Below are positions 5,539 through 62,300 of a stretch of DNA of 64,000 nucleotides, piece by piece. Each line of letters starts with the position of its first letter. The stretch's first letter is position 1. The notes beneath the pieces are model-generated. The model saw only the letters and a list, made by a program, of their open reading frames with translations. It was not told the DNA's origin and searched no databases. Origin of the DNA: a bacterium (GTDB lineage Bacteria > Patescibacteriota > Patescibacteriia > UBA9934 > GWF2-40-263); contig JAJYIV010000001.1 in NCBI GenBank assembly GCA_021789915.1, positions 375 to 64,374 on the forward strand. The letters are read 5' to 3'. Made by a program: the position numbers and the translations under genes.

Positions 5539-6174
5539 TCAGGAGCGGGAAAGCGTCTGAATCGCGAGGCGCAAGAGGAGGTCGGCGACGTCGGGCGGCA
5601 GATGCTCCTCCATCTCCGCCCGCGTCATACCCTCAAGCTCGTGGCTGAGGTAGTGGATCCACGGGTCGTCGCCGCCATCCTCGTCGTAAAGGTCGTGACC
5701 GACGCACCAGTAATCGGGCGTCACGTCCATGGGCGGCTGGAAGCGACGGATCTTGTAGTCGTGGACGGCCACCTTGATGTCCGCGCGCGGAATGCCGTGC
5801 TCCATGATCTTGCCGACCAGGTGGTTGATCGTGAGGCCGCGGTCGAAGATGTCGTCGACGAGCAGCACCTTGTCGCCTGCCCGCAGGTGCGCCGGATCGT
5901 AGGTCCAGCCCTCGACGCGCACCTCGTCGCGCTGCCCGAGTCCCGTGTAGGAGCGAGCCGCCACGGCGGCGAACAGGATGCGCCGCAGCTCCGGACGCTG
6001 CGCCCGCACCCACTTGAAGAACTCGCTTACCGGATTGCCGACGGAAGACCCGCCGCGCAGCGCGATGTAGATCACGTCCGGGTAGAAGCCGTCCTGGAAG
6101 ATCCGGGCGGCCATGCGCCAGGCATTGTCTCGCAGGACATTGGCCGGGACAAATATTTTCCGGTGGGTTTCCAC
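5539..6174 (-). CDS. type I phosphoribosyltransferase (hypoxanthine/purine PRTase-like)
   Basis: 211 aa. PRPP-binding motif VLLVDDIFDRGLTINHLV. Divergent from dcd. Confidence 0.7.
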   Translation of the reverse strand: METHRKIFVPANVLRDNAWRMAARIFQDGFYPDVIYIALRGGSSVGNPVSEFFKWVRAQRPELRRILFAAVAARSYTGLGQRDEVRVEGWTYDPAHLRAGDKVLLVDDIFDRGLTINHLVGKIMEHGIPRADIKVAVHDYKIRRFQPPMDVTPDYWCVGHDLYDEDGGDDPWIHYLSHELEGMTRAEMEEHLPPDVADLLLRLAIQTLSRS

Positions 6175-6254
6175 GATTCCTCCGTCGTCACGACAGGTGA
6201 CGTGCGGGCAGCCTAGACGAACGGCGGCGATTTGTCCACGCGCGGCTTGCGTCG

Positions 6255-6345
6255 GAAGCCGTTAGCCGTTAGCCTTTAGCCGTTAGCCTTTAGCCAGATA
6301 AAAAGCGGGCTCGGCTAACAGCCAATAGCTAAGGGCTAACAGCCC
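6255..6345. repeat. R4 hairpin element (GTTAGCCGTTAGCCTTTAGCC .. GGCTAACAGCCAATAGCTAAGGGCTAACAGCC) ending 4 nt before the dcd ATG
   Basis: Long imperfect palindrome. Related copies upstream of dnaE (29657-29725) and the DUF2304 gene (52205-52295). Confidence 0.6.
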
Positions 6346-6348
6346 CCT

Positions 6349-7020
6349 ATGCCCGTCCTCACCCGCCCCGACATTCTCGACCGCATCGCGCGCGGCGACG
6401 TGCGCTTCACGCCCGCGCTCGACGCCTTCCAGCTGCAGCCGCACGCCGTGGACCTGCGCCTCGGCTACAAGTTCCTCATCCCGAAAAACTGGACGCTCGA
6501 CGAGAAAGGCCGGCGCGCGATCTCCGTCTCGATCGAGCGGCCGGACGCGGCGGACGGCCAGTTCGAGGAAGTCGTCCTGAAGCCGGGACAGTATTTCGAG
6601 CTGCTGCCGAACGAATTCGTGATCGGCACGTCGCTGGAAGAGATCGAGCTCTCGGCGCCGGACCTGATGGCCCTGCTCTTCCCGCGCACGTCGACGAACC
6701 GACGCGGCATCGACCTCTCGCTCTCCGGCATCATCGACGCCGGGTACAAGGGCCGCCTCATCTTCCCGATGAAGAACGAGGCGGGCGACCAGGTGCTGCG
6801 CGTGTGGCCCGGCGAGCGCGTGTGCCAGGTGATCTTCGAGACGCTCTCGACGACGATCTCCGCCGAGGAAGCCGATCGTCACGGGCTGGCGTCGGCCAAG
6901 TACAGCGCCAACGGCGCGCAAACGTACCGGCTGGACAAGGAGGAGGAGCGCGAGGCGCTCACGGGCGGCGGGCTGGAGGAGCTCAAAAAGAAATTCGATA
7001 CGCAAAACCGTGCGTCTTGA
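6349..7020 (+). CDS. dcd: dCTP deaminase (dUTPase-fold)
   Basis: 223 aa. dCTP deaminase family pattern (DLRLGYKF.., GxIDAGYKGRL) with a C-terminal extension. Confidence 0.85.
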   Translation: MPVLTRPDILDRIARGDVRFTPALDAFQLQPHAVDLRLGYKFLIPKNWTLDEKGRRAISVSIERPDAADGQFEEVVLKPGQYFELLPNEFVIGTSLEEIELSAPDLMALLFPRTSTNRRGIDLSLSGIIDAGYKGRLIFPMKNEAGDQVLRVWPGERVCQVIFETLSTTISAEEADRHGLASAKYSANGAQTYRLDKEEEREALTGGGLEELKKKFDTQNRAS

Positions 7021-7031
7021 GCGGTTTTCGC

Positions 7032-7946
7032 TCACAGCTGCTTCAGCACGTTTTGCAGCTGGCGCAGACCGTCCGCTTCCGTTTCGTACTCGATGTGATA
7101 GACGACGCTCGGGATGCCGCGCGTGTAGCGCGTGACGCGGCTGTCTTTCTTGGACACGAGAATGATGGGCTTGCCGGCGGCGTGCGCCACGTCCAGCCCC
7201 CCGCCCGTGCCAAGCGACGGATACGTCACGTCGGCGACGACGGCGTCGGCGGCGCGCACCTGCGCCACGTCCATGTCGTAAACCTCGCGCGGCGAAAAAT
7301 GCGCGTGCCTCTCCGGATCGCTGTGCAGATGCGGCACGTACGCACGGACGCCGAGCTCTTCCGCTGCCGCGCCGATGCGCTCGTACCATGCCTTGTGGCC
7401 GTCGCGAACGTCGTCCGGCAAGTTCGTCAGCCCGCCGGAGACGTAGATCGAACGGATCGACGGGCGCATGGCGGCGGTCAACACTTCTTTGGAAAATCGG
7501 CCGTGTGCGTCTTCAAGAAGATAGACATCGCGGATGCCCGCGTCGATCATCGCCTGCCAGCACGGCTCGCAGCACCACCAGTGGCCGTTCATGTACACGT
7601 CCGCGCCTGCCGGATCGATGCCGCACTTCCGGGCGCGCTTGATGAGCATCGGCTCGGCGTGACCGGAGGGCTCGTGGAAATCGCCGCACAGGTCGTAGCC
7701 CGTGCCTGTCGGACAGGAACGGACGAAGCGCGGGCACACATGGCCGCCGTCGCGTCCGCGGGACCACCCGTTGCCCGCGTCCGTCACGACCGCCCCGTCC
7801 TTGACCAGCACGGCGCCGACCGGAAACACGCGGTCGCCGGCAAGCGTGCGGCGCGCTTCCTCGGCCGCTTGCATGAACGGATGGTCCGCCGGAACGTATT
7901 TGAACGCGCGGCCGGGCGGCAGATAGGGATAGTTCGGAGCGGGCAT
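7032..7946 (-). CDS. fusion protein: N-terminal dCMP/cytidine deaminase domain plus C-terminal nucleoside 2-deoxyribosyltransferase/DNPH1-like domain
   Basis: N-terminal zinc-binding deaminase motifs HAEPMLI ... CCEPCWQAM. The C-terminal half (IYVSGG..DMDVAQVRAADAVVADVT..GTGGGLDVAHAAGKPIILV) has an NDT-fold pattern without the canonical catalytic Glu. Confidence 0.7.
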   Translation of the reverse strand: MPAPNYPYLPPGRAFKYVPADHPFMQAAEEARRTLAGDRVFPVGAVLVKDGAVVTDAGNGWSRGRDGGHVCPRFVRSCPTGTGYDLCGDFHEPSGHAEPMLIKRARKCGIDPAGADVYMNGHWWCCEPCWQAMIDAGIRDVYLLEDAHGRFSKEVLTAAMRPSIRSIYVSGGLTNLPDDVRDGHKAWYERIGAAAEELGVRAYVPHLHSDPERHAHFSPREVYDMDVAQVRAADAVVADVTYPSLGTGGGLDVAHAAGKPIILVSKKDSRVTRYTRGIPSVVYHIEYETEADGLRQLQNVLKQL

Positions 7947-7954
7947 ATTTCCTG

Positions 7955-8022
7955 TGTCATCCTAAAGGAATGAAATGACCGAAGGATCTGTTGACGGATC
8001 CTTCGCTCCGCTCAGGATGACA
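7955..8022. repeat. R2 palindromic element, intergenic copy (TGTCATCCT..GAAGGATCTGTTGACGGATCCTTCG..CTCAGGATGACA)
   Basis: Near-perfect palindrome. Two further copies lie inside miaA and miaB. Confidence 0.75.
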
Positions 8023-8593
8023 CAACCTTATAATGTTTCAGCGTCGCGGGGCCGAGCGGCTCCTGCGAAACGAGCGCGAGCCGGCCGAGGTCGAAGCCGG
8101 GCGCCAGCGGCACGCCCGCGCCAAAGTGGACCGGCTCGACTGTCAGGAACGCCTCGTCGACCAAACCGTCGTTCAAGAACCGCGCGTACACCTCCGCGCC
8201 GCCGCAGACGGCGACGGAGGCGACGCCTTCCTTTTCCAGCCGCGCTAGCAGCGCGCGCGTCTCCTCCGAGGTGAACTCCACCGTGCCGTCGTTTCCTCCC
8301 CCGACCCCTCCGCTACGCGGAGGGGTGACCTCGGCTCGAACAGCGCCACCCCTCTCCATGCAATGGAGAGGGTCTGGGTGAGGCCGGTGCGTCAGCACGA
8401 TCAGGCGGCGGCCCGGCAGCGGCTTGCCGATCGTCTCGAACGTCCTGCGTCCCATGATCATCGTGCCGATCTCCTTGGTTTTGGACACGAAAAACGCGTG
8501 GTCTTCCCTGCTGGTCCAATCGAAAGAGTTTTCCGACGCCGCGCGCGCGATGAAGCCGTCCTCCGTGACGGCGGCGATCAGGATGACGCGCAT
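8012..8593 (-). CDS. dihydrofolate reductase family protein (RibD C-terminal/DHFR-like)
   Basis: 193 aa. VILIAAVTEDGFIA..W....D..F N-terminus typical of the RibD_C/DHFR family. A G-rich internal insertion is present. Stop overlaps the thyA start region. Confidence 0.65.
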   Translation of the reverse strand: MRVILIAAVTEDGFIARAASENSFDWTSREDHAFFVSKTKEIGTMIMGRRTFETIGKPLPGRRLIVLTHRPHPDPLHCMERGGAVRAEVTPPRSGGVGGGNDGTVEFTSEETRALLARLEKEGVASVAVCGGAEVYARFLNDGLVDEAFLTVEPVHFGAGVPLAPGFDLGRLALVSQEPLGPATLKHYKVVSS

Positions 8594-8594
8594 A

Positions 8595-9434
8595 TCAATA
8601 GACGTTCACCGTGATTTCCATGCCCTTGATCGCCTCCAGCGGCTGGTACTGCGCCTTCAAGCCGTCGAAGACCTCCTGCACCCATGCCGCGTCGCCGGCG
8701 CGGGCGCGGTCATACGAGTGCGGCGGCAGGGCAAGCTTGATGGGCGGATGATCCGGCGCGCGCCCGACGAGCGCGCGCGCCGCGTCGAAATGATTGTCGT
8801 AGACGTGCGCGTTGCTGATCGAGTGCGTGTAGATGCCGGGACGCACGCCGAGGCGTTGCGCCAGGATCGCCTGCAGCAGCGCAAAGCCGGCGGCATCGTG
8901 CGGGCAGCCGAGCATCATGTCGTTGGAACGGACGATATTGTGCAGATGCAGCCGCCCGCCGGCGATGTTCACCGTGAACGTGTACGGGCACGGCAGGTTT
9001 TTCTTCGCGTCGACACCGAGGCCGTCGCTGGCCGGATCCCACGTGACGACGACGCCGTGGCGCGACGCGGGATTTTCCGTCAGATGCGCGATGAGCGCCT
9101 CGATCTGATGGCGGCCGAAATGCGCGGACCAGCGGTAGCCGTACGCCGCCTTCACCGTTCCGTCCGGCTCGAGGAAATCGTCCCATATTTTCGTGAACGG
9201 CCGCAGCCAGGACGGATCGTTGCCGCCCTGCAGGAACCACGCCTGCTCGGCAATGAAGATCTTGAGCGGGATCCGGCGCAGCGCGAGCAGCGGAAAGGAC
9301 TCCTCCGCGTCCACGCGCAGGGTGATGCCGGGCAGCATGCGCGGCGTGCGGCCGGACCACGGGTTCGGCTGGTCCAAGCCGTGGTCCAGGATGTCCGCGA
9401 CGGCCTGCCGGTACTGGGCGTCGAATGGCTGCAT
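8595..9434 (-). CDS. thyA: thymidylate synthase (ThyA)
   Basis: 279 aa. Hallmark motifs LPCPYTFTVNI and HDAAGFALLQ. Confidence 0.95.
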   Translation of the reverse strand: MQPFDAQYRQAVADILDHGLDQPNPWSGRTPRMLPGITLRVDAEESFPLLALRRIPLKIFIAEQAWFLQGGNDPSWLRPFTKIWDDFLEPDGTVKAAYGYRWSAHFGRHQIEALIAHLTENPASRHGVVVTWDPASDGLGVDAKKNLPCPYTFTVNIAGGRLHLHNIVRSNDMMLGCPHDAAGFALLQAILAQRLGVRPGIYTHSISNAHVYDNHFDAARALVGRAPDHPPIKLALPPHSYDRARAGDAAWVQEVFDGLKAQYQPLEAIKGMEITVNVY

Positions 9435-9514
9435 ACGCGCTCGAGCGTAGCAAAAGGCGGCGGCGCTTCCCAGTGGATAACCTCCGCGGCCGATTGCGCT
9501 AGAATGTCCGGCGT

Positions 9515-9946
9515 ATGGAGTGGCTCACGATACGGCTGAAGCGACTGGACCCGCAGGTACCCATGCCCGCGTACAAGACGCCGGGAGCCGCCGCTTTCGA
9601 CCTCGCCGTCGTCGAAGGAGGCGTCCTGGCGCCCGGGGAGCGGCGGCTGTTCCGGACGGGGCTGGCGATGGAAATCCCCGCCGACCACGCCCTGTTCATC
9701 TTCGCGCGCTCGAGCAATGCCAAAAAAGGCGTCGCCTTGGCCAACGGCGTCGGCGTTCTTGACCACGATTTTTGCGGACCGGAGGACGAGCTGCGCCTCG
9801 CCCTGCACAATATCGGGGGTGCGCCCTATGAGATCCAGCCGTACGAGCGCCTGGCCCAGGGGATGATTTTGCCGGTGCCGCACGTCGTGTTCCTCGAGAG
9901 CGAACTCACGGACGCCAATCGCGGTTCGTTTGGGTCGACGGGATAA
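9515..9946 (+). CDS. dut: dUTP diphosphatase
   Basis: 143 aa. dUTPase motifs (AAFDLAV, RSSNAKKGV, GVLDHDFCG, RGSFGSTG). Confidence 0.85.
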   Translation: MEWLTIRLKRLDPQVPMPAYKTPGAAAFDLAVVEGGVLAPGERRLFRTGLAMEIPADHALFIFARSSNAKKGVALANGVGVLDHDFCGPEDELRLALHNIGGAPYEIQPYERLAQGMILPVPHVVFLESELTDANRGSFGSTG

Positions 9947-9992
9947 ATCTGGTACTCTTCGCACAGGTCTTTTTGAAGCGGAGGAAACCGTT

Positions 9993-10721
9993 ATGGGCAA
10001 CGGAACGTTCATCATGTTCGACGGCATCGGCGGCAGCGGGAAAACAACCGTCGTCCGTGCCGTGGCGTCGGCGCTGGCGGCACGAGGCGCACGGCTGTTT
10101 TGGCAGGCGGCGTGGGAACAGGCGCACGGTGCCACGCCGACCCTTGCAGACGCCGGGGACGCGGACGTTCTGCTCACGGCGGAACCGACGAAGGCCTGGA
10201 TCGGCGCCGCCATTCGCGGCGAGCTGTCGCGCGCGGACGATCCCTACGGCGGCACGGCGGCGGCGCACGCGTTCGCCTTGGATCGCGAGATCCTGTACCG
10301 CCGGCTCGTCATCCCGGCGCTCGCGGCGGGGAAAACCGTGCTGCAGGATCGGGGCGTATGCACGTCGCTCGCCTACCAGCCGCTCATGGAGGGCGGCCTT
10401 CCCGCCGAAGAGATCGCGTCCCTCCCCGGCAACCGCCTGGCCCTCGCGCATGCGCCGCACGTCCTCGTGCTGGTGCGCGTCTCGCCGGAGACGGCGGCGC
10501 GGCGGCTTGCCGCGCGGACGGAACCAGCCAAGGGCGTCTACGGCGATCCGGTGTTCCTGGCGCGCGTGGCGCGGGAATCGTACGACGATCCCGCGTTCCG
10601 CGACCGCTTCGCCCGGCTCGGGACAAAGGTTCTGACGCTCGAGGCGGAGGATGGGCCGGAGGAGGTCGCCGCTTCCGCGATCCGCCTGCTCCGGGAATTC
10701 CTGCCAAGCCTCCGCTCCTAG
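9993..10721 (+). CDS. tmk: thymidylate kinase
   Basis: Start at MGNGTFIMFDGIGGSGKTT (P-loop) after GGAGG. Terminator hairpin GACCGCCCGCGCGGTC + T-run at 10724-10752. Confidence 0.85.
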   Translation: MGNGTFIMFDGIGGSGKTTVVRAVASALAARGARLFWQAAWEQAHGATPTLADAGDADVLLTAEPTKAWIGAAIRGELSRADDPYGGTAAAHAFALDREILYRRLVIPALAAGKTVLQDRGVCTSLAYQPLMEGGLPAEEIASLPGNRLALAHAPHVLVLVRVSPETAARRLAARTEPAKGVYGDPVFLARVARESYDDPAFRDRFARLGTKVLTLEAEDGPEEVAASAIRLLREFLPSLRS

Positions 10722-10784: not shown

Positions 10785-11669
10785 ATGCCACGCCCCATCT
10801 CCATCCGCCTCAGCGAATTGATCGACCGCGCCTGGGAACAGTACCGCGGCGCGTTCGGAACCTATCTCCGCGTCACGGCGTGGCTGCTCGTCCCCGGCCT
10901 CCTGTTCATCATCTCCCTGCTCCTGTATCCGACGGCGGACACGCTGTTTTCGGGCCAAGGATTGACGGGGTTGCAGCTCTCCGGCGCCATTCTTTATTTC
11001 ACGACCTACGCGCTCATCCTGCCGCTGACGGCCCTGTGGGCGTACGTGACCATGGTCCAATGGTCGCTCGCGCGCCTGCGCGGCGGCCGGAAGGATCTCC
11101 GCGCGTCGATGCGCGAAGGCGTTCGCCGGCTACTGCCCGTTCTGGGCGCCACGGCGCTCCTCGTCCTGTCCATCGCGGCCGCTTATGTCGGTCCGCTCGT
11201 TCCCGGATTCCTCCTCTCGCTGACGATCGGCCATTATGACGCCGCCTGGATGATGGTGTTGCGTTCGCTGGTCCTCCTCATCGGCGTGCCGGCCGCGTTC
11301 GCCCTGGCGGTCTACGCCTTCGGCGTCCTGCAATTCGCGCCGGTCGCCGTGGCCGCCGGCGATGCGAAAGCGGCGGCGTCCCTCAAGGAGAGCTTCCGCC
11401 TGGTTCGCGGACGGTTCTGGGGCGTGCTGTTCCGCTCGCTGATCGCCAAAGGCCTCTTCCTTCTGCTCGGCGGCGTCGCCTTGTGGATCGCGGGAAGCCT
11501 GTTGAGCGCCGTCACGAGCCTGGCGCTGCCGTCGTCGCCCTTCGCGGCCCTGCGCCTGGTGACCATCATCTTCAGCCTGCTGTCCTGGATCATCGTCCCG
11601 ATGTTCGTCACGCCGGCCGTCACGCTGGTCGACGTAAACCTCTACCGAAGCCTCAAGGAGAACGTATGA
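10785..11669 (+). CDS. hypothetical polytopic membrane protein (paralog 1)
   Basis: 294 aa with multiple TM helices. N-terminus L..L..RAWEQYR. Confidence 0.6.
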   Translation: MPRPISIRLSELIDRAWEQYRGAFGTYLRVTAWLLVPGLLFIISLLLYPTADTLFSGQGLTGLQLSGAILYFTTYALILPLTALWAYVTMVQWSLARLRGGRKDLRASMREGVRRLLPVLGATALLVLSIAAAYVGPLVPGFLLSLTIGHYDAAWMMVLRSLVLLIGVPAAFALAVYAFGVLQFAPVAVAAGDAKAAASLKESFRLVRGRFWGVLFRSLIAKGLFLLLGGVALWIAGSLLSAVTSLALPSSPFAALRLVTIIFSLLSWIIVPMFVTPAVTLVDVNLYRSLKENV

Positions 11670-12388
11670 TCCCGTCCGTCGCCGATCTCCTGCGCGCCGC
11701 CTGGCGGCTGTATCGGTCCACGCTGGCCCTGCTGTCCGGCTACCTGGCCTGGCTTCTCCTGCCGATCATCGCGCTCGTCCTACTCTCCTTCGCCCCGGCG
11801 GGAGTCGCCGCCGACGCGGCGAGCCTTCTCATCCAATTGGGCGGCGCCGTGCTGTCGATTTGGATTTCGCTCATCGTCATCCGCATCCTTTCCGCCTCGG
11901 CAACCGGCCGGCACGAGGCGCTGCCGGCCGTCATCCGGTCGTCGCGCGAGCGCTTCGGGCCGTTTTTGACGGTCAGCGTGCTGCAAGGAATTGTCGTCCT
12001 GGGCGGCTTCATCCTGCTCATCGTCCCCGGTTTGATCTTCCTCGTGTGGTACGCATTCGCTTCGCTGGAGGCGGCGCTCTCCGGTCGACACGGGCTTGCG
12101 GCCCTCGCGGCAAGCCGGAACCTCGCGCGCGACCGGTTTTGGCCGGTGATGTGGCGCCTGGCGGCCGGCCCCGTCGTGCTCACCGCGTGGTACGCCATCC
12201 TTATGGGGATCATCTTCATTCCGCTCCTCGTCGCCACGGGCACCACGATCGCGGCGGTGACCGGCGACCACCCGCCCATTTGGTTCCTCGCCTTCGACGC
12301 GCTCGGTCAGACGTTCTTCCTCACGCCGCTCTTGCTCGCCTATTCGGTCCTGCTCTACCATTCGCTGGCTGGTGAACGTGAGACGTAG
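11666..12388 (+). CDS. hypothetical polytopic membrane protein (paralog 2)
   Basis: ATGA overlap with the upstream gene. AAGGAG RBS. N-terminus LLRAAWRLYRSTL resembles paralog 1. Confidence 0.6.
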   Translation: MIPSVADLLRAAWRLYRSTLALLSGYLAWLLLPIIALVLLSFAPAGVAADAASLLIQLGGAVLSIWISLIVIRILSASATGRHEALPAVIRSSRERFGPFLTVSVLQGIVVLGGFILLIVPGLIFLVWYAFASLEAALSGRHGLAALAASRNLARDRFWPVMWRLAAGPVVLTAWYAILMGIIFIPLLVATGTTIAAVTGDHPPIWFLAFDALGQTFFLTPLLLAYSVLLYHSLAGERET

Positions 12389-42690: not shown

Positions 42691-44223
42691 TTATTTGAGA
42701 GGCCCCGCGGCATGCTCGACGGCCTCGAGCAAGGTATCAGGCACAAGTCGCATCAGCGCCTCGATGTCATAGTACAGGATTCGGTCTTTCTCGAGGAACG
42801 GGACATGCTGTCGAATGAGCCGATAGGCGGCGTCCGTGCCGCGACCGAGCGCGAGCGGTTTGCGGAAATCGGCGCCTTGGGCGGCGCAAAGCAGTTCGAT
42901 GGCCGCCACTTTTTTGGCATTGGATACGATCTCGGCGGCCTGGCGCGCGGCGATCGTCCCCATGCTCACGTGATCCTCCTGGTTCGCCGAGGTCGGGATC
43001 GAATCCACGGAGGCCGGATGCGCCAGCACCTTGTTTTCGGACACGAGGGCGGCGGCGACATATTGCGGGATCATGAAGCCGGAGGACAGCCCCGCCTGTT
43101 CCGACGGGACGAGAAACGCGGGCAAGCCCTCCGAGAGATGCGCATCGACCAGGCGCGCGACGCGGCGTTCCGAAATGTTCGCCAGTTCGCTCACGGCGAT
43201 TTTCAAGAAATCCATCGCCTGGGCGATCGGCTCGCCGTGGAATTGTCCGGCGCTGATGGCAATGTCGTCATCCGGAAACAGCAACGGGTTGTCTGTGACG
43301 GCGTTCAACTCGCGCTCAAGAACCGTCCGTACGTACGCGATGCCGTCGCGCGAGGCCCCGTGGACCTGCGGCGCGCAGCGCAGCGAATAGGCATCCTGCA
43401 CGCGGCCACAGCCGCGATGCGACTCGATGATCGCCGAGTCCGCGCATAACCGGCGCACGTTCTCCGCGACCTGCGCCTGACCTGGGTGCGGACGCAGGGC
43501 GTGCACGCGCGGATCGCAGGGAGCGACGGACCCCATCATGACCTCCAGCGACATGGCATACGCGACGTCAAAGACATTCGCCAACTGCGCCGCGTCGTGC
43601 GCGGCCAAGGCGCCGATCGCCGTTTGGACGGCCGTCCCGTTGTTCAACGCCAATCCTTCCTTCGATTGCAACACGACCGTGCCGAGGCCCTTCTCGCGCA
43701 AGACCTGCGCGGCGGGACGGCGGCGGCCCTCTACGATCACTTCGCCCTCGCCCATCAGCACCAGCATGATGTGCGACAAAGGGGCCAAGTCACCGGAAGA
43801 TCCGACGGAACCCTGCGAAGGAACGAATGGATAGATGTCGTAATTGAGCAAATCCACCAACCGGTCGGCGACGGCCGGACGCACGCCGGAATGTCCGCGC
43901 AGCAGGCCGTTGACGCGCAAGACGATGGCCGCGCGCACCGCCGCTTCCGGCAATGGCGCTCCCACGCCGGTCGCATGGGAACGGATGAGATTGGCTTGCA
44001 GCGTCTCCGTCTGATCCGGCGAAATGACGACGTTCTTGAACTGGCCGCACCCGGTCGTCACGCCGTAGACCACCTGTTTCTCGGCCACGAGACGATCCAC
44101 GAACGCGCGTGCTTTTTCCAAAGCGCCGCGGGCCGACGGATCAATGGAAACCCGTTCACGGCCGCGCGCCACGCGAACGACCTCCTCGATCGTCAGGCCA
44201 TTTCCCTTCAACATGATGGACAT
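42691..44223 (-). CDS. aromatic amino acid/histidine ammonia-lyase (MIO-dependent HAL/PAL family)
   Basis: 511 aa. MIO region GSVGSSGDLAPLSH (Ser-Ser-Gly where Ala-Ser-Gly is canonical). Lyase_aromatic fold throughout. Confidence 0.85.
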   Translation of the reverse strand: MSIMLKGNGLTIEEVVRVARGRERVSIDPSARGALEKARAFVDRLVAEKQVVYGVTTGCGQFKNVVISPDQTETLQANLIRSHATGVGAPLPEAAVRAAIVLRVNGLLRGHSGVRPAVADRLVDLLNYDIYPFVPSQGSVGSSGDLAPLSHIMLVLMGEGEVIVEGRRRPAAQVLREKGLGTVVLQSKEGLALNNGTAVQTAIGALAAHDAAQLANVFDVAYAMSLEVMMGSVAPCDPRVHALRPHPGQAQVAENVRRLCADSAIIESHRGCGRVQDAYSLRCAPQVHGASRDGIAYVRTVLERELNAVTDNPLLFPDDDIAISAGQFHGEPIAQAMDFLKIAVSELANISERRVARLVDAHLSEGLPAFLVPSEQAGLSSGFMIPQYVAAALVSENKVLAHPASVDSIPTSANQEDHVSMGTIAARQAAEIVSNAKKVAAIELLCAAQGADFRKPLALGRGTDAAYRLIRQHVPFLEKDRILYYDIEALMRLVPDTLLEAVEHAAGPLK

Positions 44224-44348
44224 ACGAAGGAATTCATGAGAATCTCGCTTCAACCTTCCACCCAACTATGGATGTCGTCAACCCAATCTCCCTTGACAAC
44301 GAGTTCCCTCTTCCGGAAGATGATCGCGGCCCTTTCCAGGAGGAAACC

Positions 44349-54189: not shown

Positions 54190-56064
54190 TCATCCTCCTA
54201 CCAGCACCTGCCGGCTGAAGACGTCGTCGCTTTGCGCCGACAGCGGCAGGCCTTCGGGCAGCGTCTCCCAGGAGCCGGCGAGCATGCGCACGAACAAGCG
54301 TTCGAAATGGTTCGCCGCGAGATCCGTCACGCGCCGCCGCGTTCCCCGGTCGACGTACCAGGCGTCGGTCGATCCCGGCGCTTCCATGAGCGCCCCGGAC
54401 GGCCAGGATGAGGAAAGCGCGGCCTGGTCGATATCCGGCCCCTGGCGGAACTTGGTGAAATAGGTCGGCTCGACGTCGATGACGCGCGACGCCCAATCGG
54501 GCCCTCCCAGCGCGCGCGCCGCCGCTTCGTCCTTGATCCAGCGCAGCGTATAACCGTCGGGCGAGACGAAATACGTCCTCGGGTCGCTGGCGATCTTTAC
54601 CCAGTACGTGCCGGGCCGTACGAGGACGGGAGCGCCCAACGGAATCGCCGCCATGTCGGAAGGCGGAATCGTCCTCACGCTGGAAAAATCAGGGAACCAG
54701 CTGCGGAAGATGACGGCGTTCGGGAACGGATGGCGCTTGCCGTCCAGGCCGACGATATAGACCGTCGGCAAGGCGGCAAGGCGGATCAAGGAATCGACGG
54801 GAGCCGACGCAGGCAAAGCGGCATTGGCGGCCGCGCGGTCGTACGCGGACGGCGAGGATTCCCCTCCTGCCAAGCCTGTCCTGAGCGAAGTCGAAGGAGG
54901 GGGGCTGCCTGCTGGCCGCCCGTTGACAGGCGGGGGGGTCTGCATCGCGACCGGCACGGCGGCGCCCGTGTGGTCGAAGGAGCCCGCGATCTGCAGCGCC
55001 CGCCCGACATTCAGCCGGCCCGCGCCGACGGCGCCGACGGGTGCGCCGCCCGTCGACGTGATCGGATCCGCCGACAGCTGCAGGATGGTGCGGATCTGGT
55101 CCGGCGTGAGCGTCGGGTGGACGGAAAGCAGCAGGGCGGCCGCGCCGGAAACCAGCGGCGCGGCGAAGGACGTGCCGGACCAGCCGTCGTCGTACGGCTT
55201 GGTGAAATCGCCGTATTGCGGCCGGTAAAGCTCCGTGCTGAAGACGTCCGTCCCCGGCGCCGCGATGTCCACGCATCCGCCGCCGTAGTTGGAGAAGCTC
55301 GCGCGCGCGTCATTCGCATCCGTCGCGGCGACGCCGATGACCGGCCGGACGCCGTTGGCGTTGAAACAGGCCGGGTAATCCGGCGCCTGCGACAGGTCCG
55401 TTCCCCCGTCGGCATTCCCGACGGCCGCGACGACCACCACTCCTTGCCGATAGGCCCGCTCGATTTCCGTTTCGAGGTCCGGATCCAGGCTGGTGCCGCT
55501 GAAACTCAGGTTGATGACGCGGGCGCCGTGGTCGACGGCGTAGCGGATGGCCGGCACCACGTTGGCGCTGTCCCCGCGCCCGAAGGCGTCCACGATGCGC
55601 AGCGGCATGATTTGGACGCCGAAAGCCAGTCCGGCGATGCCCTGGGCGTTGTCGGCCGTCGCGGCGATTTCGCCGGCGATGATGGTTCCGTGGTCGGCGC
55701 CGTCCGGCAGCCAGCCCTGCGACAGGTCCGGCTCCGGGTCATTGGTGTTTTCCACGAAGTCCCAGCCGTGCACGTCGTCCACGTAGCCGTCATGGTCGTC
55801 GTCGATGCCGTTGCCGGGAATCTCCCCGGGATTCGTCCAGATATGATCCTTGAGGTCGGGATGCGAGAGGTCCACGCCGGAATCCAGGATGGCAACGATG
55901 ACGCTCGAGGAGCCGCGCGCATAGTCCCAGGCCGCGGGAGCGCCGACGCGCGCCAAGTAATCCTGCTTGGCGAAGTCAGGATCGTTCGGGACATAGGCCA
56001 GGGCCGTGAGCGGGATGAACCACGCGGCGAGCAGGGCGGCGATCAGGCGTTTCATGCGACGCAT
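54190..56064 (-). CDS. secreted S8 subtilisin-like serine protease with C-terminal extension and in-frame R2/R3 composite insertion
   Basis: Signal peptide MKRLIAALLAAWFIPLTALA. Catalytic triad motifs (AILDSGVD, HGT, GTSFAAP). Confidence 0.85.
   Translation of the reverse strand: MRRMKRLIAALLAAWFIPLTALAYVPNDPDFAKQDYLARVGAPAAWDYARGSSSVIVAILDSGVDLSHPDLKDHIWTNPGEIPGNGIDDDHDGYVDDVHGWDFVENTNDPEPDLSQGWLPDGADHGTIIAGEIAATADNAQGIAGLAFGVQIMPLRIVDAFGRGDSANVVPAIRYAVDHGARVINLSFSGTSLDPDLETEIERAYRQGVVVVAAVGNADGGTDLSQAPDYPACFNANGVRPVIGVAATDANDARASFSNYGGGCVDIAAPGTDVFSTELYRPQYGDFTKPYDDGWSGTSFAAPLVSGAAALLLSVHPTLTPDQIRTILQLSADPITSTGGAPVGAVGAGRLNVGRALQIAGSFDHTGAAVPVAMQTPPPVNGRPAGSPPPSTSLRTGLAGGESSPSAYDRAAANAALPASAPVDSLIRLAALPTVYIVGLDGKRHPFPNAVIFRSWFPDFSSVRTIPPSDMAAIPLGAPVLVRPGTYWVKIASDPRTYFVSPDGYTLRWIKDEAAARALGGPDWASRVIDVEPTYFTKFRQGPDIDQAALSSSWPSGALMEAPGSTDAWYVDRGTRRRVTDLAANHFERLFVRMLAGSWETLPEGLPLSAQSDDVFSRQVLVGG
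54861..54950. repeat. composite R2-fragment/R3 element inserted in frame in the subtilase
   Basis: CTGTCCTGAGCGAAGTCGAAGG (R2-like) joined to GAGGGGGGCTGCC..GGCGGGGGGGTCTGC (R3). Confidence 0.6.
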
Positions 56065-56099
56065 TGTAACACACGGGGAGGCTGCGGCGCGGATTCGCA

Positions 56100-56330
56100 C
56101 GCAGGACTCCCCCTTGCCTCTCCTTGCCAAGTCGGAACTCCCCCTAACCCCCTCTTGAAAAGAGGGGGTGCGCGTTCCGGACCGCGCCATTCCCCTCTTA
56201 CGAAGAGAGGGTGCGCGGGTTCCCATGATCCATCCCCCTCTCTCGGAGAGAGAGTCCGGGGGAGTTCCGGCAAGAAACGAAAAACACGGAGCCCGCTGGA
56301 GAACGGACCCCGTGTTTTCATATTCTCGAA
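56100..56330. repeat. tandem hairpin repeats between the subtilase and giant-protein genes
   Basis: Three related hairpins (CCCCTCTTGAAAAGAGGGGGTGCGCG, CCCCTCTTACGAAGAGAGGGTGCGCGG, CCCCCTCTCTCGGAGAGAGAGTCCGGGGG) plus AAAACACGG..CCGTGTTTTC. Confidence 0.55.
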
Positions 56331-56331
56331 C

Positions 56332-59300
56332 CTACGATTTCGGATTCAAGGCCGTGCGCGTGGCCGCGTCCAGCGCGCCCGTGACGGGCAGCCGCCAGCC
56401 GGCCTGCAATGCCTTCAGCGCGGCGCGGGTCGCCCCGCCGAAGTAGCCGTAGGCGATGCCCTTCGGGATCGTGAGCAGATGCTTGGCGACCAGGAATTGC
56501 TGCAGGGCCGTCACGTCGTCGCCCTTCGAGCCGACCGCAAGGTTCTTGAGATACGCGTGGACGGCTTTGGCGACGGGCGAGGCCGGAGGAGCCGCGGGAG
56601 CGGCGGCAGCTGCCTTCGGATTCAAGGCCGTGCGCGTGGCCGCGTCCAGCGCGCCCGTGACGGGCAGCCGCCAGCCGGCCTGCAATGCCTTCAATGCGTC
56701 GCGCGTCAGCGCGCCGAAGCGGCCGAAGGCCACGCCCTTGGGCATCTTGAGCAGGCCCTTGGCGACCAGGAATTGCTGCAGGGCCGTCACGTCATCGCCG
56801 GTGGAACCGACCGCCAGGTTCTTCAGATACGCGTGAAGCGCCTTGGCGACGGGCTGCGCCGGCGTGGCCGGGGTGGCCGGGGTCGCAGGCGTGGCCGGCG
56901 TCGTCGATGTGGCGGGCGTGGCCGGGGTTGCAGGGGTTGCCGGCGTCGCGGGCGTTGTCGCCGCTGCTGCAGCGACGATGGAGAAGACGCCCGAGATGCC
57001 CGTCGCCTGCGTCACGCCGCTCGCATCGCGGCACTCGATTTTCACCCGGGCCGACGACGTCGCCGCGCTCGGCACCGTCCACGCATAGGATCCCGTATTC
57101 GCCACGCCGGCGGACGCGATGAGCGTGTAGGCGCTGCCGTCCGCCGAGTAGGAGAGCAGGACATCGTGGATGTCCGAGCCGGAGGACGTCCAGACGATGG
57201 ATTGGGCGGCGCCTTCCGTGAGCGAAGCGCCCGCGGCCGGCATGCTTACCGTGCAGGAATCCGTCGCCGGCGCGACATACCCGCCGCCGCCTCCGCTCGC
57301 GCCGCCGGAAGACGGCGTCCGCACGGACGCGGAAGCCGATGCGGCGGATTCGGCGCTGCCGTTCATCGAGGTGATCTCGTAGTAGTACGTCGTGCCGCCC
57401 ACGACCGTCGTGTCCGCGTAGGTCGTCGTCGCGCCGGAAGAAACAGTGGGCTCGCTGCCGACACGGCTGAAGGTCCCCGTGGGGGACGTGCTGCGGTAGA
57501 TGTCGTAGCCGGAGGCGCCGGTGATGGCTCCCCACGAGAGGTTCACCTGCGTGGAGCCGGTCGTCGTCGGCGTGGCAAGGGTCGGCGCCGAAAGAGACCC
57601 CGTGTCGCCGCTGGTCGGCGCATACGTCGACAAGTGGTCGGTGACGGCCGCGATGGTGATGGAGCCGACATTCCCCAGGTTGGCATCCACCGTCTTGCCG
57701 GAGCTGCCGTCCAGGATGCCGCCGCTCGCGTCCTTGTAGATCACGGCCGACGGGAGCGTCGTCCAGTCGCCGCTGGCGTCGTCCTGATACGACATCTTCA
57801 AGGCATCGGCCGCCGTCTTCGTATTGATGCCGGAAGCGGAAAGATCCGACGACGTGAACGTCTTCTCGACGGTGCCGGTGCCGCTCGGCATGGCGTCGAG
57901 CGAATTGTTGTCCGAATCCTTGGCGGTGATGTCCACGGCGGAAGGCACGGTGGAGCTGCCGATCGCCGACTTCAGCACGGTGGCCGTGCCCGTGGAGAGG
58001 ACGCCGCTCGTCTCGTCGCTCTTCACGCTGCCGCTCGACGTCGAGGAGCCGTAGGCGCCGCCGTTGATGACGAGGCTCGCGTCCGCCGAAGCGTCCTTGA
58101 GGACGCCGCCGGAAGCGGGCGCGAACGGCATGGAGGCGGGCGACGTCGCCGAGACGGTCGAGGAGAGGGTGACGGTATTGCCCGTTGCGGAGGGCGCGCT
58201 GCCGGACGTCGTGACCAGGCTGGAAAGCGCCGAGGATTGGTAGCCGTCCGCCGATCCGGAAACCTTCCACGTGCCGTCGGTCACGTGCAGCGTGTAGGCG
58301 CCGGTGGAATCGGTCTGCGCGCTGACGAATCCGCCGCCCAACTTGCTCGCCTGCACGGTGGCGTTCGCGATCGGATTGCCGGAACCGTCAACTGCCGTCC
58401 CCGAAATGGTGTCCGAGGCGATCGGCAGAGTCACACCCAAGGTCGGATTCTCCGCGCTGGTCTTATGCGTCGCGTCGACCGTGACGGACGCGGGAGCGAA
58501 GGCATAGCCCGGCTTGGTGACCGCCATCGTGTACGTCCCGTCTGCCAGATTGGCGGCGTAATTGCCGGAGGCGTCGGTCTGCACGTCCGTGCGGACGCCG
58601 TCGGACGCCGTGAAGGCCACCTGTGCATTCGACACGGCGGCCGGCGTTCCCGCATTGTCATCCACCGTTCCGCTGACGCTCTCAACGCTTGCAGGCGTCG
58701 TCAGCGTCAAGGAGATAGGGCTGCTGGCGACGGTGAGGAGGCCCGCCGCATACCCGCTGCCGCTGAAATCAGACGCGGCGACGGTCATGCCGGGAATGTC
58801 CGCCTGCACGAGATAGGTGCCGGCGGGCAGCGACGTCGTGAAGGTGTTGTTGCCGGACGTCACGTCCTTCAGCCGGAGGAAGGACTGCTGCGCGGCGCCG
58901 CTGCCGCTCGAGACGAAGCTCACCAGGCCGCTCGGGACCTTCGTGATGCCGGTGAGGGCGATCGTGAGCGTAACCGTCACGGCCCCGCTGCCGGAGACCG
59001 CGAAGTTCTTGCCGGACTGATCCGCCGACGCGTCGAAGGCGGCGAGCGGCGGGAGCTGGCCGACGCCCGGCAGGGTGGCCGTCAGAGTGTAGCAGTTCGT
59101 TCCGGAGGTCGTGCAGGCCGGCGCCTTGAAGGAATAGTTGCCGCTGCTGTCCGTTGCCGCCTGGTTGAACGTGCCGTTCGTGCCGACCAGCGAAACGAAC
59201 GCGCCCGGGACGGCGGAGCCGTTCGTCACGGATCCGGAGATCGTCACGAACGTTCCGGTGCCCGTCTGGGACGGAGCGAAATTGACGCCCGTCTGGCCCG

Positions 59301-62300
59301 AGGATCCGGAGGCGATCGTCACCGTCTGCTCGGCGAGCTGGCCGTATTGCGGCAGGAAGGAGCCGACGTTCCAGGTGCCCGCGGCGACGTAGAGCGTGTA
59401 GGCGCCCGTGGAATCGGTCTGCGCGCTGGCGCCGCCCGGCGCGTCCGTGCGGTAGGCGTACACCGTGGCTCCGCTGATGACGTTGGTGCCGTCCGTCACC
59501 TTGCCGGAGATGCTGGAAGACGGTTTGGCGATGGTGAGGGTCATGGCGGAGAAGGCCGGCGTGACGGCCGAAGCGCCGTTGATGGCGTCATTGCCGCTGC
59601 CGTCCACGACGACCGGCACGATCTGCGAAGGCGGCGCGCCGGCGAAGGAGGCGCCCACCATGAAGCTGCCCGCGGCGACGTTCAGCGTGAACGTGCCGTC
59701 GGTCGCGCTCGTCGTGTGCGTGCCCGTCCCGCCCTGCGGCGAGAAGGCGAACACGTCGGCGTTCGCCACGACCTTGGACGTGCCGGTCGTCCCGTCCTTC
59801 ACGGTGCCCTTGATCGTCTTGAGCGACGAGCCGGACGTCAGCGAAACCGCCAAGGAACCGCAGGCCGTGGCCGTGCCGTTCACCGTGCACGCGGGAGAGG
59901 CCGTGTGGTCAATCACCAGCTCCTGCGGCTTCGGCGGGAGGAAATCCATGACCGGCGCCGGCCCGAACTGGTTTCCGGCGTTCATGTGCGGCCCGACGCC
60001 CAGGTGCCAGCGTCCGTCCGTGAGATTCAGCGTGGCCGACCCGGCGCCGCTGCCGTTCAGCGGCACCTCTTTGAGGCGGAACCCTTGGGTGTTGGACGCA
60101 TTGGCGAACACGTCAAGGTCGCCGCTGTCCGGTCCGCCCGATACGGCCACCGTCACGCTCGTGCCGCCGCTCATGGACGCAAGCGTGTAGGTTTTCGTCA
60201 CGTCGCTCCCGTTGATGTTGACGTGGTCCGGGAACGTCAGGCCGACATAGGAGTTGCTGCCGGAGGTGACGGTCTGGTCGGTGGAGATGAAGTAGTCCCC
60301 CGGCGGAAGCGTGTTGAACGTGTACGACGCGGTGCCGCTCGAGAACGCCGGAGACGCGCTGAACGAGCCCGCCTGCGGAGAATTGAGGTAGACGTTCATC
60401 GTGTCGCCGTCGGCGGCGCCGGCGGCGGCGAAGCTCACGGTCAGGTTTTTGGAACCGGTCGTGGGCTGGATGTAGAACGGCGAGGACGTCAGGGACTCGA
60501 GCACGGTCGAGCCGTTCATCGTCTTGATGTCCACGGTGTAGCCGGAGGAGTTCACGTCCGCCGGCACGCTGGTGTTCTTGATGCCGGCGATATCGATCGA
60601 CAGGAAATCGTGCCCGTCGGATCCGTTCAAAGCCGTCGCGCCGGAAAGGTTCACGGTGACGGTGCGGGACGCGACGTTCACGGTGACGCCGTCATGGGCA
60701 GCGCCTCCCTGCGTGGCGGCCGCTGAATCCTCTGCGACGGACGTCCCGCCGCAGGACGCTCCGGTCGGAGCGCTCGCGGACGTGCACTTGAACGTCACCG
60801 TGCCGCCGGCCGGCCCGTCCAAATCCTTCCGCATCGGGCTGTTCACGTCCTGCTTGGCGCCCGAGACGTCGAAGCCCGCCGGGAACGTGAGGACGACGGT
60901 GCCGCCGTCGGGAATCTGCTGGGAGATCGGCAGCCGGACGCCGTAGATGGTGGTCTGCCCGGGCAGCGTGTTGAACGGCTTGACGTCCACCGGCGGGGCG
61001 AAGCCGAACGTGCCGGACGAGAAGTTCTGCGGCACGAAGGCGCCCGCCATCTGCTGATTGGTCGCCATGCCGCCGCCGAAGGCGGGCCCGAGCACGCCCT
61101 TGGTGGTTCCGCTGGCCTGAATGGGCGCGACGCCGACGTTGGACGAACCGATGGCATTGCCCGACACGTCCTTGACGCCCGTGACCGTTACGGAAATCTT
61201 CTGGCCGTCCAGCGCGGATGCGCTGAGGCCGTTGTAGCCCGCGATGCTGGCCGTCATCGACATCGGATCATACGTGACCACCGCCGTCGTCGGAATCGAG
61301 ATCGGGGTTCCCGTTCCGTCCGCGCCGTAGGTCAGCGCGTAGTTCCCCGCCTTGAGGACGCTCGCGCCGAAATTCGTCGTGTCCGTCGCCTGCGCGGCGT
61401 TCATCGGCTTGGAGAACGTGACGGCGAGATTGTAGTCGTCGGCGCCGACGAATTTCACCGCGGGCGCGGACGTGTCCGCGTCGCCCGTCGTGAAGCTGCG
61501 CGTCTGCGCCGCGATCGCCTGGCCGTTCAGCGCCGTGACGCCGGCGCCGACATTGAGCGTGTAGGTGGTGTTCGGACTGAGCGCGGAAAGCGGGAATATG
61601 TAGGCCTGCTGCTCCGTCGGATGGTACTCGACCTTCGCGTTCACGACGGAGGAGCCGATCGAGAGGTACAGGCTGCTCGACGTGATCGTCGAGGCGTCCA
61701 TGCTTTCGCTGAATCCGACGTTGACGGCCGGCAGCAGGACGGGCACGCCCGTCGCGCCGTTGTCGGGATAGGAGCCGACGATGGTCGGCGCCGCGGTGCT
61801 GCTCGTGTCGGACGTCGTGAAGTCCGACGTATAGACGACGTTCGACGCCGTATTGGCCAGCGCCATGCCGTTGGCCGCCAGCGCGCCGCCGAGGATCTTG
61901 ACGCGATAATGCGTGTTGCTCGACAGAGGGCTGAACGTGACGACCGCGTTCTTCTTGGAAGCATCGAGCGTCGCCGAAACGACTCCGTTCGTCACGCTCG
62001 TTTCCGCGCCGGAAGCGACGGTGAAGAGCTGCACGTTGCTCTTCAAGGAGTAGGAGCCGGCATCATCCGCCATCAGATCCGAGAAGTTGATGACGGCGTT
62101 CGTGTTTTTCGGCACGCCCAGGGAGCCGGAGGACGGCGTCAGGCCCGTGACGAACGGTGCCGTGTACGCGCCCTGCCCGTACGTACCGACGGTCGTCCCG
62201 CCGCTTGTGAAGGTGCCGTCCGAGTTGAACGTGGCGCCGCCGCCGCCGGTGCCGCTGAACATGTTCACGGAGGAGCCCGTCGTGAAGCCGAAGGCGTACG

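Follow-up and report, generated by a model that had tools for sequence, protein, structure and literature searches.

The 64,000-nucleotide segment of bacterial chromosome analyzed here (the window; 65% GC) carries, between positions 5539 and 10721, a gene cluster for thymidine nucleotide synthesis that encodes a thymidylate synthase (TS)-family enzyme of the ThyA fold, a dihydrofolate reductase (DHFR), a fusion of a zinc deaminase to a DNPH1-like domain, a Dcd-fold protein, a dUTPase (Dut), and a thymidylate-kinase-family protein (Tmk). From the residues at their active sites, we consider it moderately probable that this module, which is conserved in an Uhrbacteria-like lineage of Patescibacteria, makes thymidylate (dTMP) by methylating deoxycytidine monophosphate (dCMP) first and deaminating second. 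To date such a route has been demonstrated only in phages whose DNA carries 5-methylcytosine instead of cytosine. The order of methylation and deamination is the only point at which this route departs from the textbook one. A first-pass annotation of the same DNA had proposed seven open reading frames (ORFs) that are devoted to dTTP supply and cover every step to dTDP. All seven ORFs are present at the coordinates given below, each matching its assigned family in a Pfam profile search, and the dedication of the cluster to dTTP supply is supported. The claim of complete coverage holds for the gene families, but the genes called dcd and thyA lack the residues that define those enzymes, and the phosphoribosyltransferase does not belong to the module. 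Evidence on this genome comes from the 64-kb window and evidence on the families from homolog libraries and related loci; gene content, domain folds, active-site residues, conservation, and synteny were read from these directly.

We infer all substrates and products of the route, which would run as follows. The Dcd-fold protein, acting as a (d)CTP pyrophosphatase without the deamination Glu, would convert dCTP to dCMP. The TS, which has Asp at position 177 (E. coli numbering), would convert dCMP and methylenetetrahydrofolate to 5-methyl-dCMP and dihydrofolate (DHF), and the coupled DHFR would return DHF to tetrahydrofolate (THF). In the 304-aa fusion protein, the zinc deaminase domain would then deaminate 5-methyl-dCMP to dTMP, and the Tmk-family kinase would phosphorylate dTMP to dTDP. 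Dut would keep dUTP out of DNA, and dUMP would have no productive fate in such a cell. A 5-hydroxymethyl by-product of the TS would be deaminated to 5-hydroxymethyl-dUMP, which the DNPH1-like domain would remove.

The reaction order is read mainly from the ThyA-fold enzyme (279 aa; 8595..9434, minus strand; Pfam Thymidylat_synt, 166 bits). It had been taken for a dUMP methylase, a reading that is not supported, with Asp in place of Asn177 throughout its clade and Pro in place of His147. In an alignment with solved TSs and E. coli ThyA, Asp180 (codon GAT, 8895-8897) occupies the position of Asn177, Pro150 that of His147, and Asn146 that of Leu143, with Phe at Trp83 and His at Arg127. The TS fold is evident from Pfam, and the catalytic Cys is kept as Cys149 (E. 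coli Cys146); the clade conserves Cys146, Glu58, Tyr94, Arg166, Asp169, His207, and Tyr209 (E. coli numbering). All 120 close homologs had Asp177, as did ≈130 of the 150 top-scoring TS representatives of a library clustered at 50% identity, where canonical L143/H147/N177 enzymes appeared only further down, at lower scores. One canonical Asn177 relative (P0304) sits on a 1.4-kb contig, with an uninformative gene context. Across the related loci, every TS that adjoins the deaminase has Asp177, including five that otherwise look canonical. According to Hardy & Nalivaika 1992 and Liu & Santi 1992, as cited in PMC8670742, Asn177 determines specificity for dUMP versus dCMP, and an Asn177Asp change turns the enzyme into a dCMP methylase. 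In metaviromes, too, positions 177 and 147 best set cytosine-modifying TS homologs apart (PMC8670742). Hydroxymethylases of this family carry Asp or Glu at position 143, methyl products go with Leu, and 5-hydroxy-dCMP synthases carry D169N (PMC13326640); the window TS has neither Asp/Glu at 143 nor D169N. The window enzyme is therefore predicted to be a dCMP C5-methyltransferase.

The five otherwise canonical-looking enzymes (L026, L037, L040, L050, and L052) are ≈30% identical to the window TS and have canonical W83, R127, L143, and F176 together with Asp177 and Tyr147; in these loci, the change to Asp177 may be an independent or an intermediate one. In a separate 504-aa protein (P0344), an Asp177 TS is fused to a LOG/SLOG domain (Lysine_decarbox, LDcluster4), another nucleotide N-glycosidase-type fold.

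The closest phage relatives of the window TS come from PaMx74, Achromobacter JWX-like, and Xanthomonas Bosa-like phages. The N143/P147/D177 residues and a DGLG insertion are common to the window TS, PaMx74, and Xanthomonas phage DoCa10, and W83F is likewise common to the window TS and the enzymes of phages that use 5-methylcytosine (5mC). The N143/P147/D177 signature was found in 85/150 TS representatives and 65/73 loci. PaMx74 has 5mC in place of C, and 5/7 Asp177 TS homologs made 5-methyldeoxycytidine (5mdC) in vivo (bioRxiv 10.1101/2024.12.05.627091). In the same study, dCMP-deaminase-family enzymes encoded in cis deaminated 5-hydroxymethyldeoxycytidine in vivo, 34 of 56 active ones preferred 5mC, and such deaminases were proposed as a source of thymidine nucleotides in Xp12-type phages, with 5mdC nucleotides as the starting material.

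The gene content of these phages matches that of the window. Xp12 and PaMx74 also have an Asp177/Pro147/Asn143 TS beside genes for a dCMP-deaminase-family protein, a DHFR, and an NTP pyrophosphohydrolase, and the PaMx74 module (hydrolase, thyA, cd, and frd, the first being the NTP pyrophosphohydrolase) has the same functions as the module of the window. The TSs are homologous, at 35-38% identity. By contrast, the window module lies on a chromosome, beside ribosomal protein genes, and has been conserved by vertical descent within a bacterial phylum; its putative pyrophosphatase has the Dcd/dUTPase fold instead of the MazG or HAD fold of the 5mC phages, and its deaminase is of another lineage and carries the DNPH1-like domain. 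Judged by sequence, homology between the window and PaMx74 modules is confined to the TS and DHFR, and the rest is analogous. A scan against PHROGs was not discriminating: all that it matched were generic families named "thymidylate synthase" and "dCTP deaminase".

The DHFR (193 aa; 8012..8593, minus strand; Pfam DHFR_1, 62 bits, and RibD_C, 53 bits) is translationally coupled to the TS. Its start codon lies 1 nt past the TS stop codon, the corresponding genes in locus L001 overlap by 4 nt, and the fusion gene comes next. A DHFR gene adjoins the TS gene in nearly all related loci. This coupling is consistent with DHF production by the TS, which argues for methyl rather than hydroxymethyl transfer. 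The window DHFR has an insertion of ≈24 residues, at about aa 73-97, that is rich in Gly, Pro, and Arg (HPDPLHCMERGGAVRAEVTPPRSGGVGG) and, by alignment, is missing in orthologs of 167-168 aa and in E. coli FolA.

The Dcd-fold protein (223 aa; 6349..7020, plus strand; Pfam DCD, 86 bits) had been read as dcd, converting dCTP to dUTP. The deamination Glu of Dcd is E. coli E138, on the strand TLE(L/F)xN. In an alignment with solved Dcd and Dcd-Dut enzymes (4xjc, 2qxx), Pro140 (codon 6766-6768; motif LIFPMKN) stands opposite the catalytic Glu of TLELxN, and 119/120 homologs and all loci have the LIFPMKN motif unchanged. The protein also scored under the cut-off of the TIGR02274 equivalog model (85.3 versus 92.8 bits). 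The replacement of the deamination Glu by Pro in the window protein and its orthologs indicates that this protein cannot be a dCTP deaminase. Its other Dcd/dUTPase motifs are kept, and it is better conserved, at 65-82% identity, than any other protein of the cluster. The parsimonious interpretation is that it acts as a pyrophosphatase on dCTP (or 5-methyl-dCTP) and gives dCMP, which would make it functionally analogous to the MazG/PRA-PH or HAD enzymes encoded beside phage Asp177 TS genes. Homologs P0391-P0510 are named "dCTP deaminase" or "2'-deoxycytidine 5'-triphosphate deaminase" in public sources, and use of this name for the Glu-less family is probably a systematic misannotation.

The third component is the 304-aa fusion protein (7032-7946, minus strand), in which the first-pass annotation had recognized a deaminase joined to a domain of the DNPH1/nucleoside deoxyribosyltransferase (NDT) fold. 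Both the two-domain architecture and the fold of the C-terminal half were confirmed by Pfam, profile-PDB comparison, AlphaFold, and Foldseek. Pfam dCMP_cyt_deam_1 (PF00383) matched aa 21-143 (E 5e-11; 42.8 bits versus a cut-off of 25) and Nuc_deoxyrib_tr (PF05014) matched aa 181-270 (E 2e-9; 38.1 versus 28.8 bits), both above the gathering score. An AlphaFold model built from 46 homologs had a pLDDT of 91.2 and a pTM of 0.80. Mis-assembly or a frameshift was ruled out by the identical fusion protein in three independent public assemblies (NCBI, ENA, and Logan); the window was identified as contig DAHWTR010000002.1 of assembly GCA_027328745.1. Nor is the fusion uncommon, as had been thought: 281 stretches coding for a relative turned up in a scan of the GTDB species-representative genomes, and the two-domain architecture recurs in more than 500 clusters of homologous proteins of ≈300 aa.

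The N-terminal zinc deaminase domain (aa 1-160; 7467..7946, minus strand) contains the two motifs quoted for it earlier, HAEP (H96 and E98) and CCEPC (C126 and C129). H96-A-E98 and C126-x2-C129 (C126-E-P-C129) are invariant across the fusion family, and a conserved H69/C71/C87/H91 cluster is also present. When the N-terminal family profile was compared with the PDB, the best match was the S. mutans dCMP deaminase 2hvv (E 2.7e-7), and RibD and TadA were weaker. The domain is predicted from these features to be a 5-methyl-dCMP (or dCMP) deaminase, and its substrates may be mono- or triphosphates.

The C-terminal domain (aa 161-304 plus stop; 7032..7466, minus strand) is closest by profile to DNPH1 (E 2e-9), then to the CMP N-glycosidases BcmB, BlsM, and MilB, and then to nucleoside deoxyribosyltransferases. 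Foldseek searches with this half of the AlphaFold model gave DNPH1, MilB, and BcmB at probability 1.0, with target-normalised TM scores of 0.69-0.83. The nucleophile of DNPH1 is Glu104, and an E104Q change abolishes activity (PMC10603095). Gly250 (codon GGG, 7197-7199; motif GTGGGLD) occupies this position in the window protein. The usual catalytic Glu is thus missing here, as noted before, but its absence is not a property of the architecture: Glu was found in 95/96 aligned full-length homologs and Gly in the window protein alone. GGG is one transition away from GAG, and Gly250 could be a population variant. The window domain retains Tyr168, His206, Asp226, and Ser244, of which Tyr168 corresponds to the deoxyribose selector Y24 of DNPH1, Ser244 to the phosphate ligand S98, and Asp226 to the general acid D80. 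Among the 96 full-length homologs, Tyr was present in 90 and Ser in 94, but the Asp80 equivalent in only 29; both phosphate-binding Ser residues are kept in the family, and the family His aligns with DNPH1 His56, which contacts uracil O2. Identity of the window protein to its closest homolog is 73% over the C-terminal domain, compared to 68% over the whole protein.

The fate of this domain varies among related loci. It was full length in 42 of 82 (all with Glu), decayed to 100-139 residues in 3, reduced to a tail of 40-99 residues in 28, and almost entirely missing in 9, some of which are cut by contig ends. Deaminase-only proteins of 207 aa are common in Uhrbacteria. These patterns suggest that, across the family, the domain is probably a catalytically equipped but dispensable accessory that has been shortened or lost many times. 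Because its nucleophile Glu is replaced by Gly, the window copy is probably catalytically dead, with at most a binding or structural role left.

Human DCTD and DNPH1 provide a precedent for the pairing of these two activities. Fugger et al. (in 2021) reportedly linked the two enzymes in sequence, with the dCMP deaminase followed by the DNPH1 N-glycosidase, which acts on 5-substituted pyrimidine deoxynucleoside monophosphates (dNMPs). The window has both folds in one chain, and the fusion family preserves the Tyr, His, Ser, and Glu of DNPH1. In contrast, human DCTD and DNPH1 are separate proteins, the Asp80 equivalent is variable in the fusion family, and the window copy is without the nucleophile. 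By analogy with human DNPH1 and hydroxymethyl-dUMP, the family's DNPH1-like domain is probably a dNMP N-glycosidase that destroys a deaminated by-product, dUMP or 5-hydroxymethyl-dUMP.

The module is widespread in one part of the bacterial tree. Homologs of the fusion were nearly all from Patescibacteria, foremost Candidatus Uhrbacteria, many genomes of which share the order nusG-L11-L1, Dcd-like, fusion-DHFR-TS, (Dut)-Tmk, two membrane proteins, and gatB. Loci titled Saccharibacteria, Moraniibacteriota, and Magasanikbacteria have TS-(DHFR)-Dcd-like-deaminase on one strand. The cluster had been called an island, with co-transfer and phage origin to be considered. Instead, the shared synteny, together with G+C at third codon positions (GC3) that equals that of the neighbors (0.81-0.91 for cluster genes), implies that it is a vertically inherited, chromosomal core module rather than a transferred island. 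We also rejected a viral origin of the fusion family, which is practically absent from the 2.9 million viral contigs of IMG/VR; these yielded only two distant stand-alone deaminases, with no TS nearby.

Natural fusions tie the proposed steps together. DHFR, deaminase, and NDT domains are joined in P0068, a deaminase and an Asp177 TS in P0268, and PRA-PH and an Asp177 TS in P0277. In addition, a single 548-aa stop-to-stop ORF (L059:885-2528) contains Dcd-like, deaminase, and NDT-like regions and could be either a true triple fusion or the result of a lost stop codon. The P0268 deaminase was rejected as an ortholog, being of another lineage, although it still supports the functional link.

Several points weigh against the methylate-first order. 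The order rests mainly on one residue rule, Asp177, and on positions correlated with it, and a dUTPase and a dCMP-deaminase-family protein would be needed equally in a canonical dUMP route. Position 143 of the window TS is Asn, neither the Leu of methyl-transferring enzymes nor the Asp/Glu of hydroxymethylases, and for this reason the methyl assignment is based on the enzyme's resemblance to the PaMx74 type and on the coupling to DHFR; for Asn143 itself, the sole calibration is that 5mC phages have it. Two of the four phosphate-binding Arg residues are changed in the window TS lineage by R21W and R127H (Trp in 82/120 and His in 118/120 homologs, respectively), with Arg21 retained in orthologs such as those of L001 and L003 and in phage PaMx74. 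In pairwise comparisons, the PaMx74 deaminase and hydrolase had no significant similarity to window proteins, and the characterised phage deaminase mSCD-B5 acts on triphosphates, not monophosphates (bioRxiv 10.1101/2024.12.05.627091). Finally, TS gene content was read in the 64-kb window, and a second ThyA or a ThyX may be encoded elsewhere.

In the canonical order, the deaminase would convert dCMP to dUMP, Dut would add more dUMP, and the ThyA homolog would methylate dUMP despite Asp177, with the Dcd-like protein serving as a dCTPase or a second dUTPase that feeds the dUMP route. All of the gene families fit the textbook pathway, and the canonical bacterial enzymes (Dcd, Dut, ThyA, FolA, Tmk, and ComEB type) have the same folds and lead to the same end product; the window Dut and DHFR look canonical. 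Moreover, the window TS is nearer to solved canonical TSs (E 4e-40 to 1e-21) than to any hydroxymethylase among its 60 best PDB matches, and the literature on the candidate phyla radiation (CPR) takes thyA and folA as canonical. Profile scores were divided: the TS narrowly passed the NCBIfam equivalog model TIGR03284 (109.6 versus 108.35 bits) but fell far under the cut-offs of the other four of five ThyA equivalogs (for example, 137.5 versus 327 and 115.9 versus 327). Two textbook steps miss their defining residues, with Pro for the Dcd Glu and Asp for ThyA Asn177. The dUMP-using TS-family enzymes that we compared all have Asn177, and Asp is invariant in the window clade, which also has H147P, L143N, and W83F in common with the 5mC-phage enzymes. 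A dUMP-cleaving DNPH1-like domain on a dUMP-producing deaminase would also be counterproductive. We hold the canonical order to be unlikely, though by no means negligible.

Two other pathways would keep the dCMP specificity of the TS. Chemistry of the Xp12 type would exclude dCTP, phosphorylate 5-methyl-dCMP with the Tmk-family kinase, and leave genomic C largely or wholly as 5mC, with the deaminase diverting part of the pool to thymidine nucleotides. It is consistent with a functional make-up like that of the 5mC phages (dCTPase, Asp177 TS, deaminase, and DHFR), with the putative dCTPase being the most conserved protein of the cluster, and with a divergent Tmk-family kinase that scores just under the dTMP-kinase cut-off. 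Against it, wholesale 5mC would be expected to raise C-to-T pressure, yet the genome is 65% GC, and the tight coupling or fusion of the deaminase to the TS suggests full conversion to dTMP. We know of no cellular organism with such chemistry and consider it very unlikely in this genome; the broader proposition that carriers of the module (much of Uhrbacteria and other Patescibacteria) make dTMP via 5-methyl-dCMP, keep dCTP out, and have chromosomes in which 5mC largely or wholly takes the place of C seems to us just as improbable. Still more improbable is a hydroxymethyl pathway of the MilA/MilB or BcmA/BcmB type, in which the TS would hydroxymethylate dCMP and the fusion would deaminate the product and cleave off the 5-hydroxymethylpyrimidine base. 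The MilA/MilB gene pair does consist of an Asp177 TS-fold enzyme and an NMP N-glycosidase of the MilB/BcmB/DNPH1 fold, and position 143 is polar (Asn) instead of Leu. That position nevertheless lacks the acidic residue of the hydroxymethylases and matches the 5mC phages, and hydroxymethylation yields THF and not DHF, which would leave the tight DHFR coupling unexplained. MilA/MilB systems also differ from the window in its deaminase, DHFR, Tmk, and Dut, of which Tmk and Dut argue against such a pathway, and the fusion family has Tyr (deoxyribose) for the Phe of MilB and His for its cytosine-contacting Glu. Moreover, about half of the related loci have lost the glycosidase domain or have it in decayed form while retaining TS, DHFR, and deaminase, and the domain is probably inactivated in the window protein. 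A final alternative concerns the C-terminal domain alone and is compatible with methylation before deamination: the domain may be a non-catalytic nucleotide-sensing or oligomerisation module, as in an earlier suggestion of allosteric control. Such a role is plausible for the Gly250 copy, in which the nucleophile is lost and the rest of the domain is well conserved; the variable Asp80 equivalent and the dimeric structure of DNPH1, in which the partner subunit adds to the active site (PMC10603095), are also consistent with it. For the family as a whole, however, the nearly invariant Glu and the Tyr, His, and Ser ligands argue for catalysis, and repeated loss of the domain implies that the deaminase works without it. 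We therefore think this alternative rather unlikely.

In full-text searches of the literature, we found no paper on Asp177 TSs, Glu-less Dcd proteins, or a 5-methyl-dCMP route in Patescibacteria, and none describing a methylate-first thymidylate route in cellular organisms; CPR papers describe thyA and folA as an ordinary dTMP pathway. The phage 5mC/dT module is already known; its lineage-wide chromosomal version in cells, in which a Dcd-fold pyrophosphatase is combined with a deaminase-DNPH1 fusion, appears to be undescribed. If the methylate-first route is correct, a large bacterial radiation would make thymidylate not by dUMP to dTMP but by dCMP to 5-methyl-dCMP to dTMP, a route that is not known in cells, and hundreds of database entries for "thymidylate synthase" and "dCTP deaminase" would be misannotated. 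CPR metabolic reconstructions, including folate and nucleotide exchange with hosts, would need to change. The phage 5mC toolkit would have a cellular counterpart or cellular ancestor, and replacement of C by 5mC in cellular DNA would become directly testable. The deaminases would be new 5mC-acting enzymes of practical interest for methylome sequencing, and the deaminase-DNPH1 fusion would combine in one prokaryotic chain the counterparts of the human sanitising pair, DCTD and DNPH1.

The remaining genes of the cluster are less distinctive. Between the minus-strand TS-DHFR-fusion operon and the plus-strand dut and tmk genes lies a divergent intergenic region of 80 bp (9435..9514), presumed from the gene arrangement to be a shared promoter region. 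Dut (143 aa; 9515..9946, plus strand; Pfam dUTPase, 57.8 bits) is a canonical trimeric dUTPase with the C-terminal motif RGSFGSTG (motif 5); it scored slightly under the NF001862 cut-off (93.9 versus 103 bits). Tmk is a thymidylate-kinase-family dNMP kinase (9993..10721, plus strand; Pfam Thymidylate_kin, 70 bits) that scored 80.6 bits with TIGR00041, for which the cut-off is 83.25. The tmk ORF is real, but its start had been placed at a TTG at 9930, a start that would give it a 17-nt overlap with the end of dut; the public gene calls take the ATG at 9993 and give a protein of 242 aa with the N-terminus MGNGTFIMFDGIGGSGKTT. At the cluster's opposite end, a type I phosphoribosyltransferase-fold protein (5539..6174, minus strand) matched Pfam Pribosyltran marginally (27.3 versus a cut-off of 26.3 bits) and resembled HGPRT weakly in the PDB (E ≈3e-4). 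It had been counted as a purine phosphoribosyltransferase of the module, from which we removed it, with a homolog in only 1/83 related loci (L075).

A NUDIX homolog was found in 13/83 loci, within ≈2 kb of the fusion gene in 6, and was rejected as a core part on this occurrence. It lies beside the fusion gene in one Uhrbacteria sub-lineage (L001:10712-11200, L003:8894-9346, L009, L019, and L025), directly after it in L003, L009, L019, and L025, and might be an alternative (modified) dCTP pyrophosphatase. Many GTDB loci with unmistakable Patescibacteria-type synteny, L004, L005, L011, and L019 among them, are titled "uncultured Gammaproteobacteria bacterium" (TPA "binchicken"/co-assembly metagenome-assembled genomes), and these labels look like placeholders or errors. 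In the window, tmk is followed by genes for two membrane proteins, DUF7847/GPDPase_memb-like (10785-11669) and UPF0259-like (11666-12388), in synteny that is Uhrbacteria-wide. The window also encodes nusG, rplK, rplA, gatB, thrS, dnaE, pheT, and hisS. A giant ORF of 2552 aa (56332-63990, minus strand; GC3 0.89) adjoins a subtilase gene (54190-56226). Finally, a full-length aromatic amino acid (histidine/phenylalanine) ammonia-lyase is encoded at 42691-44265 on the minus strand (Pfam Lyase_aromatic, 672 bits), which we thought unexpected for a reduced Patescibacteria genome.

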